Shown here: piece by piece, positions 55,097-58,698 of the stretch
Numbering within the stretch: position 1 is the stretch's first letter
How the letters are laid out: each line of letters opens with the position of its first letter
Assembly: GCA_019358915.1 (NCBI GenBank)
Contig: JAHHIM010000013.1
Span: 1 to 64,000 of the forward strand
Direction: 5' to 3'
From: Trichormus sp. ATA11-4-KO1
GTDB taxonomy: Bacteria; Cyanobacteriota; Cyanobacteriia; Cyanobacteriales; Nostocaceae
DNA: 64,000 nt
Made by a program: the position numbers and the translations under genes
Notes under the pieces: generated by a model
Databases searched by the model: none
Told to the model about the DNA's origin: nothing
The model's input: the letters and a program-made list of their open reading frames with translations, nothing else

Positions 55097-56572
<1,476 letters not shown>

Positions 56573-56670
56573 GTAAATTGTACCACCTTGATTATGAATG
56601 CGGATGAGGTGTTTACAATTTATGAGGAGTGAGAAGAGCTTATTCTCCGCTTTATTGCACTTTATTTTAA

Positions 56671-56790
56671 AAGTAACGGTTGTACTGCTGACAAGAAGCC
56701 AATTGTTGTTAGCTTGCTTCACTTCTGGGCTGCAATACATACAACGAAGGCGATTGTTTTTGGGGTTGTCAGTGCAACAGCAATGCTTGA
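56671..56790 (+). other. Degenerate long attC-like hairpin
   Basis: TAAC followed by GTTGTACTG(CTG)ACAA pairing with TTGTCAGTGCAAC; expected GTT core reads GCT. Confidence 0.45.
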
Positions 56791-56840
56791 ATCAAAGCAG
56801 CCATTGAGATACGCTATAACCCAGCATTTACAGCATCTTC

Positions 56841-57143
56841 ATGAAGTTTGAAATTTTTACGCCTCTCGGATTTATGGTTAGAACATCCGAAGAGTATTGG
56901 CAACGGTTGATCATCAAGCATCCTGATATTGAGGAGTTAGAGGAGCTAATTCGATTAGCTCTTGCCATACCGGACGAAGTTCGACACAGTAGCCGAGATG
57001 CAGAAGTATTATTGTTTTATCGGGTACGGGGAGAAGAACGTTGGGTTGTTGCGGTTGCACGGCGCTTAAATGGAGATGGATTCCTCATCACAGCTTACCA
57101 AACTGATGCGATTAAGGAGGGAGAAACAGTATGGCTCAAATAA
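56841..57143 (+). CDS. Putative toxin (DUF4258-like, RelE/BrnT-like fold)
   Basis: KHP, PDEVR and GFLITAY; overlaps the next gene by 13 nt. Confidence 0.65.
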   Translation: MKFEIFTPLGFMVRTSEEYWQRLIIKHPDIEELEELIRLALAIPDEVRHSSRDAEVLLFYRVRGEERWVVAVARRLNGDGFLITAYQTDAIKEGETVWLK

Positions 57144-57367
57144 AGGTGTTTTACGAGCCGGAGACAGAGCTATTAAGCGTATTTTGGCAAGTTCCAAGAA
57201 AAAATCAAATTAGTACTGAGCTTGGAGATGGTGTGATCTTGATAAAAGATGGGGCAAGTGGTGAGCCAATTGGGTTAGAGGTTTTGTCCTACCGTCCTGG
57301 GGACGACCGCTTTGATACTGTGAGTGTTGAGTTGGGGCAAATAAGTTCGATGCAACCAGCCAGCTAA
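57131..57367 (+). CDS. DUF2283 family putative antitoxin
   Basis: YEPETELLSV, ELGDGVILIKD and GEPIGLEVL. Confidence 0.75.
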   Translation: MAQIKVFYEPETELLSVFWQVPRKNQISTELGDGVILIKDGASGEPIGLEVLSYRPGDDRFDTVSVELGQISSMQPAS

Positions 57368-57448
57368 CAACCCGGTTGGAGCGGATTGACACAGAATCTT
57401 GGTTGGGCTGCAAAAGCTGCTAGCAACCGCAAAACTTGACCGTTGGGC
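57362..57448 (+). other. attC-like recombination site
   Basis: AGCTAAC overlaps the stop codon; GTTGGGC core (GTTRRRY); inner GCGG/CCGC arms; 87 bp. Confidence 0.6.
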
Positions 57449-57511
57449 TGCTGCGTTCGGCTTGACTCAGGTGCAAGTTTTGAACAGCTTAAACAGGTAA
57501 GAGGGCGAGTT

Positions 57512-57997
57512 ATGGAAATGTCGAAAGGTGAACTGACCTTTGTATTTTTGGCGGACAGACAAGATGCAATCCCAACTGTAGCACAATGGTATTATGAAGA
57601 GTGGGGCAGAGTTCCTGACAATTCGGTTGAGCAAACGATTGAACGGATAAAAGGCAAACTCAACTGCGATAAACCTCCTTTTCACATTCTGGCAATTTCA
57701 AAGGATAGCGTTCTGGGGGTTGCTCAATTTAAGCTACGCGAGACGAGCATCTATCCAGAAAAAGAGTTTTGGCTTGGAAGTCTTTTTGTTGCTCCTAAGT
57801 TCAGAGGTTGTGGTATCGGGTCAGCTCTAGCAGAAGAAATTGCTGTCATTGCCAAAGGTTTCGGGGTCAAATATCTTTATCTGCAAACGGATGCTTTGGA
57901 TGGAGGTTTGTATAAGCGTCTTGGCTGGAAAATCATCGAGACAACCGAATACAATAGCGTGCGAGTGGCTGTCATGGTAAGGCAACTGGTTGGGTGA
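57512..57997 (+). CDS. GNAT family N-acetyltransferase
   Basis: LFVAPKFRGCGIGSAL acetyl-CoA motif and LYKRLGW; ATG at 57512. Confidence 0.9.
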   Translation: MEMSKGELTFVFLADRQDAIPTVAQWYYEEWGRVPDNSVEQTIERIKGKLNCDKPPFHILAISKDSVLGVAQFKLRETSIYPEKEFWLGSLFVAPKFRGCGIGSALAEEIAVIAKGFGVKYLYLQTDALDGGLYKRLGWKIIETTEYNSVRVAVMVRQLVG

Positions 57998-58080
57998 TAG
58001 ACCGAGCAGAAACACACCAACAACAGCAGAAAACCTTGAACTTTCACCGATAGACTCTTTATATTTGGTTTTTCCTGTCA

Positions 58081-58698
58081 ATGCGTAAGTATTATAAATA
58101 TATTATTTTTTACAAACCCTATGGAGTTCTCAGCCAATTTACACAGGAAAGTCCCAAACATATCACCTTGAAAGACTATATCCAGGTTGCCGATGTTTAT
58201 CCTGTAGGACGTTTGGACTGGGACAGTGAAGGTTTATTGTTGTTGACGAACGATGGAAAATTACAACATCGCCTCGCCCATCCTCGATTTGGACATCAAC
58301 GAACTTATTTGGTGCAGGTAGAGCGCATTCCTGATATAGATGCTATAAACAAGTTACAAAATGGTGTGGAAATTCAAAATTACCGCACTCAGCCAGCCCA
58401 AGTACGACTATTATCAGCAGAACCGCAGCTACCTGAACGTAATCCGCCAATTAGATTTCGGAAAAATATCCCCACAGCATGGTTGGAGATGACATTAACC
58501 GAAGGAAAAAATCGCCAGGTGCGGCGCATGACTGCGGCGGTAGGGTTTCCCACTTTGCGACTAGTCAGGGTAAGCATAGCCCATCTAAATCTCAATGGTC
58601 TACAGCTAGGTCAGTGGCGCGATCTCACGCCATGTGAACTGAGACTTCTGCATAAATTGCCTCAAAACTACAAAAGAGTTTCTAGCGCTAGGACATAA
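58081..58698 (+). CDS. Pseudouridine synthase (RsuA/RluE family)
   Basis: [22 protein letters not shown] and [10 protein letters not shown]. Confidence 0.93.

Follow-up and report, generated by a model that had tools for sequence, protein, structure and literature searches.

Introduction

Single attC sites that lack an integrase (SALINs) and the insertion of cassettes at attG sites are described in bioRxiv 10.1101/2022.09.11.507474, the accessible part of which reports 3400 SALINs in 2469 of 21,105 genomes. CALINs, in which attC cassettes lie away from intI, are treated in PMC4889954, whose available text requires at least two attC sites. Cyanobacteria are named as integron hosts in the accessible parts of PMC4889954 and PMC8618304, and a cyanobacterial attC model is found in those of PMC8352920. 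In the full-text literature, which leaves subscription journals outside it, no paper devoted to integrons in this cyanobacterial family (Nostocaceae) was found; the tables of IntegronFinder and of attC models may already list such sites.

The window analysed here is the whole stretch of 64,000 nucleotides from Trichormus sp. ATA11-4-KO1, and the locus under study is the interval in it from the gene that we take to be thiC to a pseudouridine synthase gene (PF00849). The locus is read here, with a probability of about 0.7, as an orphan, decaying pair of integron cassettes, which in the terms of IntegronFinder is a SALIN (a single attC lacking an integrase).

With the SALIN and attG cases the locus shares one attC with cargo, the lack of an integrase or a second attC nearby, and a cassette start at a host GTT, which fits GWT; it differs from the cases in the accessible part of that preprint in that two cassettes lie together, the last attC is destroyed, the remaining site is decayed and a later exchange between genera is apparent. 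As in CALINs, attC cassettes lie away from intI, and a two-site CALIN is present elsewhere in the genome (contig C73), but the window holds one significant attC match where a CALIN needs at least two (PMC4889954), so that a CALIN of two or three attC sites, as proposed in an earlier note made from the DNA letters, was not found. The family to which the attC here belongs has the canonical R and L boxes, the two extrahelical bases 6 bp apart and the 5-6 nt spacers of published attC sites, whereas the first extrahelical base on the bottom strand is C in 20 of 20 sites of this family and usually G in the accessible text of PMC5027507. It is likely that this site family is the published cyanobacterial attC family of PMC8352920. 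Like the hotspots of gene transfer in PMC5635113, the locus is a variable interval between conserved genes with no integrase at the spot; unlike those, which are within species in the text available, it has apparently been exchanged between genera, with neighbouring genes 79-89% identical, and its cargo is integron-derived. It is also like the toxin-antitoxin cassettes of chromosomal integrons (PMC13108822) in that two genes behind a long leader (133 nt) form one cassette, which persists where its neighbour is lost, the toxin-antitoxin role being putative here; unlike the cassettes in the accessible part of that paper, the leader gave no promoter in a simple scan.

Results

Gene content and setting of the locus

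The genome comprises 5.97 Mb in 73 contigs, with 41.7% GC and 4922 HIP1 sites, and the window is on contig C13. Three small ORFs, all on the same strand, lie in the interval, as had been noted earlier and as was borne out by the ORF list and the PF00849 and GNAT matches. They encode a putative toxin of 100 aa (56841..57143, plus strand; BECR/RelE/BrnT-like fold by structure model), a DUF2283-like putative antitoxin of 78 aa (57131..57367, plus strand; PF10049 E 0.014, under the cut-off) and a GNAT of 161 aa (57512..57997, plus strand; Pfam match). A TPP riboswitch was found 5' of the presumed thiC (56477-56573, minus strand, 62.8 bits, over the Rfam cut-off), and it was the sole scoring family in the Rfam scan of the stretch; Rfam contains no family for attC-type sites. 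GC content along the stretch showed no clear step. The absence of HIP1 sites, pointed out in the earlier note, is true but uninformative, since 33% of 20,000 random 1360-nt windows of the genome also have none, and it was dropped as evidence. No TIGR02249 match was obtained on contig C13 and no intI or attI is adjacent to the locus, so the locus is not a complete integron. The same allele is also present in Cyanocohniella sp. LLY (L126).

The attC site at 57362-57448

An attC site of 87 bp with 6/6 spacers was located at 57362..57448 (plus-strand coordinates, the bottom strand fitting the model). Detection was done by using an HMM and a covariance model (CM; our own model R1), with this site left out of the training set. 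The CM gave 65.2 bits on the bottom strand versus 5.9 bits on the top strand, with a genome-wide CM E value of 4.9e-13, and the HMM E value was 3e-13. The stop codon of the DUF2283-like ORF sits inside the R'' box, and GTT is at 57442. The R'' (AGCTAAC) and R' (GTTGGGC) boxes are each one base off the consensus RYYYAAC and GTTRRRY, respectively, and the length is within 57-141 bp. Two of the nine L-box pairs are broken, while the geometry with two extrahelical bases 6 bp apart is present.

The earlier note had placed here an 87-bp hairpin from CTAAC to GTTGGGC and taken it as an attC. The attC was recovered by the CM and the stable hairpin was not, the bottom-strand fold having a z of 0.02 (no better than shuffles) versus -1.85 to -3.18 in three sites of the same family. 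The lowest-energy fold is a non-recombinogenic one, and pfold is 1.6e-3, under all 20 family sites (8e-3 to 0.89). In the accessible part of PMC5371416, excision was absent between attC sites of pfold 3e-3 and 8e-6. On the model matches the site is a real attC that is now decayed, and efficient recombination at it today is unlikely from the predicted folds. The right arm of the site in G045 resembles the subtype with a 5-nt spacer, and the site is perhaps a hybrid of two attC subtypes.

The attC family in the genome

By Blast and iterated HMM searches, the site belongs to a cyanobacterial attC family of 84-88 bp. In this genome the family has 10 sites or fragments at 8 loci by HMM, of which the CM recovers 9, and the loci are two broken integrons (C5 and C25), the two-site CALIN on C73 and five single sites. 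Family sites adjoin intI relics on C5 and C25, with two attC on the opposite strand in the latter, and the genes beside family sites include BrnT, VapBC, GNATs, a cupin and a phosphorylase. Similar sites are thus present next to other variable small genes, as would be expected if the earlier note was right about a cassette origin.

The CM alignment consisted of 20 full family sites from this and related genomes, without the site under study. Because these were gathered by an HMM seeded with four sites, including the one under study, and then filtered for L-box pairing, the percentage of paired L boxes is partly circular. The alignment folds to the attC shape, with R box, spacers, L box and two unpaired bases 6 bp apart; two-sided changes are found in 7 of 14 pairs, and covariation is 0.432 versus 0.125 in shuffled and at most 0.065 in slid alignments. 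The spacers are 6/6 in 14 sites, 6/7 in one and 5/6 in five. The 6/6 spacer was considered as an unusual trait and dropped, five to six bases being normal according to the accessible text of PMC5027507.

A genome-wide geometric attC scan gave 52 matches, where two shuffles gave 46 and 45, and a second size class was not seen among the 9 of 52 matches listed (those with no mismatch or with the family L'' ending); the two attC size classes that had been suggested were therefore not recovered. A 78-nt piece is common to C47 (G000:C47:14683-14765) and C15 (53917-53994) with 98.7% identity, the attC being cut at the same point and followed by the same downstream bases, which suggests a recent duplication of a truncated site.

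Left boundary and cassette 1

A second hairpin (56671..56782, plus strand), opening on TAAC ahead of the small genes, had also been proposed as attC-like. It gave no HMM or CM match across its full length, the part 56671-56714 alone matching weakly (CM E 0.06); its folds had z values of 0.09 and 0.49, and in its best attC geometry 6 of the 9 L-box pairs are mismatched. Neither of the two sites folded stably on the bottom strand, a check that the earlier note had advised. The left arm of the 56671..56782 hairpin falls in the relic of a GmrSD_N (PF03235, DUF262) gene (56633..56703, plus strand, identified by homology), which contains a short insertion; the TAAC of the hairpin overlaps an Asn codon of the relic, and its right arm (56766-56778) is within a cassette leader homologous to that of L133/L135. 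From these sequence relationships the hairpin is read as a chance one that spans the relic and the cassette leader, and not as an attC. A weak alternative is that 56671-56714 would be what remains of a collapsed attC and not of host origin.

The relic reads EELILRFIALYFKSN...KKP and matches an intact gene beside thiC in G002, G187 and G046; its KKP stretch is identical to L208 at 11 of 14 nt, and it is common to the congener G001 up to 56664. Cassette 1, toxin-antitoxin-like (56708..57442, plus strand), runs from the crossover between G and TT to the G of its attC at 57442, and the orthologous cassette of the L135 array aligns from the same GTT. Of the 11 nt at its 5' end, 10 agree with the reverse-complemented R'' of the same cassette, for which the chance is about 0.001 per 177 nt; in a control, 16 consecutive array cassette pairs gave 4-11 of 11 matches. 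The host relic ends within 5 nt of the cassette GTT. About 5 nt before this GTT match neither the relic nor the cassette side, which counts against a clean insertion, and neither a readable pre-insertion GWT in the intact DUF262 homologues nor an empty allele with GWT was found. For an attG-type junction, with the crossover after the G of GWT, the left junction fits and the right one is destroyed. A simple promoter scan of the cassette 1 leader found nothing.

The putative toxin-antitoxin cargo

The 100-aa and 78-aa ORFs overlap. The 100-aa protein has no Pfam or NCBIfam match, and its best Atlas match is a cluster named DUF4258 (score 0.97), which may be the one that the protein itself belongs to. 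Its structure model (pLDDT 92) best matches toxin-antitoxin toxins and BrnT, and RelE and CDI toxin domains are also similar, with Z up to 6.8 and an rmsd of 3.5-3.8 over 75-81 residues, a middling score; a Foldseek search with the model returned nothing at E<=0.001. A toxin-antitoxin role of the overlapping pair, as predicted from the model, is likely, and the pair would probably be kept as an addiction module. Among 69 metagenome loci carrying the antitoxin gene (not counting L128, apparently the contig of the window itself), an attC match lies directly behind the gene in 6, and because of this low share the pair is taken to occur mostly outside cassettes.

The toxin-like gene is interrupted by an in-frame stop in the array copies L133 and L135, as is the antitoxin-like gene in L135; four homologues with in-frame stops (L133, L135, L159 and L165) were excluded from the toxin protein alignment. 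The same pair, whole or partial, is also found directly after a gene that we take to encode the ATP synthase gamma subunit in seven loci (L110-L114, L116 and L117; genomes G104, G170, G224, G202, G278, G240 and G214). In L110-L114 the pair is followed by a duplicate of the 3' end and terminator of the gamma-subunit gene, and in five of the seven loci a degenerate attC left arm gives weak HMM matches (E 0.02-0.24). Judged from their arrangement, loci of the L110-L114 type may represent a second, non-integrase way to fix cassette cargo.

Cassette 2 and the right boundary

Cassette 2, with the GNAT gene, extends over 57443..58034 (plus strand), as deduced from orthologous array cassettes, and of its own attC just an R'' remnant is left (about 58024-58034). 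An orthologue of the GNAT in L124 (Leptolyngbya sp. FACHB-36), 81% identical, lies between attC sites in an array of 6; the leader of the L124 cassette is homologous from GTT onward, and the tail of cassette 2 aligns with L123. Both cargo units thus occur as cassettes elsewhere, in the arrays L124, L133/L135 and L132. For the truncated third site suggested at CACCAAC after the GNAT stop, the motif is present at 58015, but the orthologues L123 and L124 place the R'' remnant about 10 nt farther right, at 58024-58034.

The remnant is fused to what is probably an inverted piece from the centre (VTS) of another attC (58025..58057, minus strand), which agrees with a family site at 26 of 33 nt, and at 27 of 33 in the G103 allele, the best of 3000 random 33-mers having 22; the boundaries of this piece were chosen after the match was seen, and it has no significant HMM or CM match. 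Next comes the end of a dispersed repeat (58061..58090, plus strand) of the IS701-group/MITE-type terminal repeat kind, fused to the start of the pseudouridine synthase gene. Its 12-mer has 144 genome matches when one mismatch is allowed, and the motif occurs in the terminal repeat of ISPlag1 (PMC2464740, in the accessible text). The first codons of the pseudouridine synthase gene (58081-58090) are repeat end, replacing the start seen in G001.

The repeat end is a reason to consider that the cassettes, though real, were placed otherwise than by IntI at an attG site, either as a piece of an array carried by an IS/MITE or by illegitimate recombination, or as the remnant of an array with a collapsed upstream attC. 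The inverted attC fragment and the weak CM match at 56671-56714 would also suit such a history, and in L110-L114 the same pair is accompanied by a truncated attC arm and a second copy of the end of a host gene. Against such a history, the left edge coincides with the GTT of the cassette itself, no more than 5 nt from sequence of host origin, and no matching repeat end was seen on the left side of the stretch. This explanation is the strongest of the alternatives and is nevertheless an unlikely one.

Variation and probable exchange among relatives

A comparison of the interval in relatives, as the earlier note had recommended, showed it to be variable. In 18 of 23 family genomes of other genera, namely those in which the two flanking genes are adjacent, the interval is 83 to 4836 nt long, with unrelated cargo and no attC match. 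In the congener G001 the sequence after 56664 is a different two-gene unit with an attC on the opposite strand, BrnT/BrnA-like as judged by likeness to the pair on C25. The cassette of this congener (G001:C21:1-790 and C149:1-520; L055 and L056) is on the strand opposite, and its attC end abuts, head to head, the R''-like end of an antitoxin-like gene fragment on the plus strand; the BrnT-like gene is split by a contig break.

Of 388 other family genomes just two matched the attC-GNAT part, namely G045 and G103, both of the genus g45; in each of them the locus and the right junction of the module are those of the window. Divergence at fourfold sites of the two small genes is 7/69 (G045) and 6/71 (G103), versus 295/758 and 294/768, respectively, in five neighbouring genes (Fisher p 4e-7 and 5e-8), a divergence about 4 times lower in the module than in the genes beside it. 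In g45 the GNAT tail is a pseudogene and shows 4 and 8 differences in about 170 nt, and the thiC leader has 4-6 differences per 100 nt versus 23-32 in the next intergenic region. The low divergence of the module relative to its flanks points to a lateral exchange of the allele between genera, and the exchanged tract probably includes the thiC leader, because its divergence is also low.

The shared locus and right junction in G000, G045 and G103, and the restriction of the module to two other genomes of one genus, could likewise come from a single insertion in the common ancestor of both genera and vertical inheritance thereafter. This reading was dropped as very improbable, since divergence at the synonymous sites of the module and in the GNAT tail is several times lower than in the flanking genes and the next intergenic region.

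The GNAT deletions in g45-type alleles have their ends at 57403/57926, 57407/58013 and 57448/57927, none of them at the crossover. These three different deletions are carried by g45-type alleles in three further sequencing runs, the two-gene pair being kept in all; two of these runs match the G103 and G045 alleles and are maybe not independent. The one run that contains the whole stretch, perhaps the source of the window itself, showed no joint, but it consists of contigs, from which excision could not be seen; no RNA run with the stretch was listed. The window lineage is suggested as the place of insertion, since the most complete version and the host relic are kept there; the gene-start sequence can be read the other way, and the exchange may have run in either direction.

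Integrases and the survey of the family

Three copies of the integron integrase family TIGR02249 were found in the genome, on C5, C25 and C37, and all are broken. The C5 intI is without residues 1-98, the C25 intI without 42-241, and the C37 copy is a frameshifted C-terminal relic. No stretch matching IntI residues 42-98 (of 320 aa) was found in the assembly, in whose 73 contigs an intI could be hidden. A recombinase encoded elsewhere, as the earlier note supposed, therefore exists in the form of TIGR02249 genes on other contigs, all three of them broken. In place of the separate dispersed cyanobacterial cassette-exchange system supposed there, an ordinary integron system is seen, for which a cyanobacterial attC model has already been published (PMC8352920, in its accessible part).

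An attC CM match (E<=0.001) was obtained in 111 of 149 other family genomes and a TIGR02249 match (E<=1e-30) in 25 of 149, seven full-length without stops and one full-length with a stop, where related genomes do not count as independent and either search scored a subset of the candidates in each genome; 150 of 589 family-wide attC matches are among the matches listed. All 25 intI-bearing genomes fall among the 111 attC-bearing ones. From these counts, integron cassettes would appear to be much commoner across this cyanobacterial family than intact integrases.

Upstream of intI in three genomes (L002:1160-1385, which is G000:C25, L044 and L045), several conserved copies of an imperfect palindrome lie beside an apparent attI crossover, and from their position they are possibly candidate binding sites of the integrase or of a regulator. 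In G012 (C14:49825-50760; L042) an intact intI of a more distant type is present, 62% identical to the C5 relic. No family attC was found near it in the flanking loci L087, L105 and L106, and the element is In0-like.

The view that the locus is a CALIN, its two or three attC sites belonging to two size classes, within a dispersed system served by a recombinase elsewhere, has in its favour the dispersed attC copies and intI-family genes of the genome and the other attC-bearing cassette of G001 at this locus; since the first site fails every test, no new class is seen among the 9 of 52 scan matches listed and all intI copies are without residues 42-98 of the 320-aa protein, it has very little credibility. 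That the attC is a chance palindrome at a stop codon, as a fold energy no better than shuffles (z 0.02) would allow, can be practically dismissed in view of the bottom-strand-specific CM match at 4.9e-13 and the homologues inside integron arrays.

Discussion

The reading as an orphan, decaying cassette pair can be set out as a history of three steps. In the first, which we consider fairly probable, an IntI, once intact in the lineage or passing through it, would have inserted a toxin-antitoxin-attC-GNAT unit; the target would have been a non-attC GTT (an attG-type site) in the GmrSD/DUF262 relic between the presumed thiC and the pseudouridine synthase gene. In the second, the allele would very probably have moved between the window's genus and g45 by homologous recombination at the conserved flanks. 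The third is decay without an integrase, the traces of which are seen directly as the L-box mismatches, the loss of the last attC and the three GNAT deletions in g45-type alleles.

As an orphan cassette relic the locus is ordinary and of a known kind. Its value is that of a case in nature of a route demonstrated for the most part in laboratory work, from a host GTT junction through decay to lateral allele exchange. The excess of attC over intact intI across the family, together with the exchange between genera, adds modestly to what is known beyond this type of relic.

For the family as a whole, we tentatively propose, at a little short of even odds, that cassettes spread mostly without integrases: rare and short-lived integrons would seed variable intergenic spots, the alleles would then travel between genera at conserved flanks, and the toxin-antitoxin cargo would outlast the attC and the neighbouring genes. 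The locus would accordingly be a recurrent landing place, with three or more distinct attC-bearing arrivals, namely the pair in the window, the inverted attC fragment and the opposite-strand cassette of G001.
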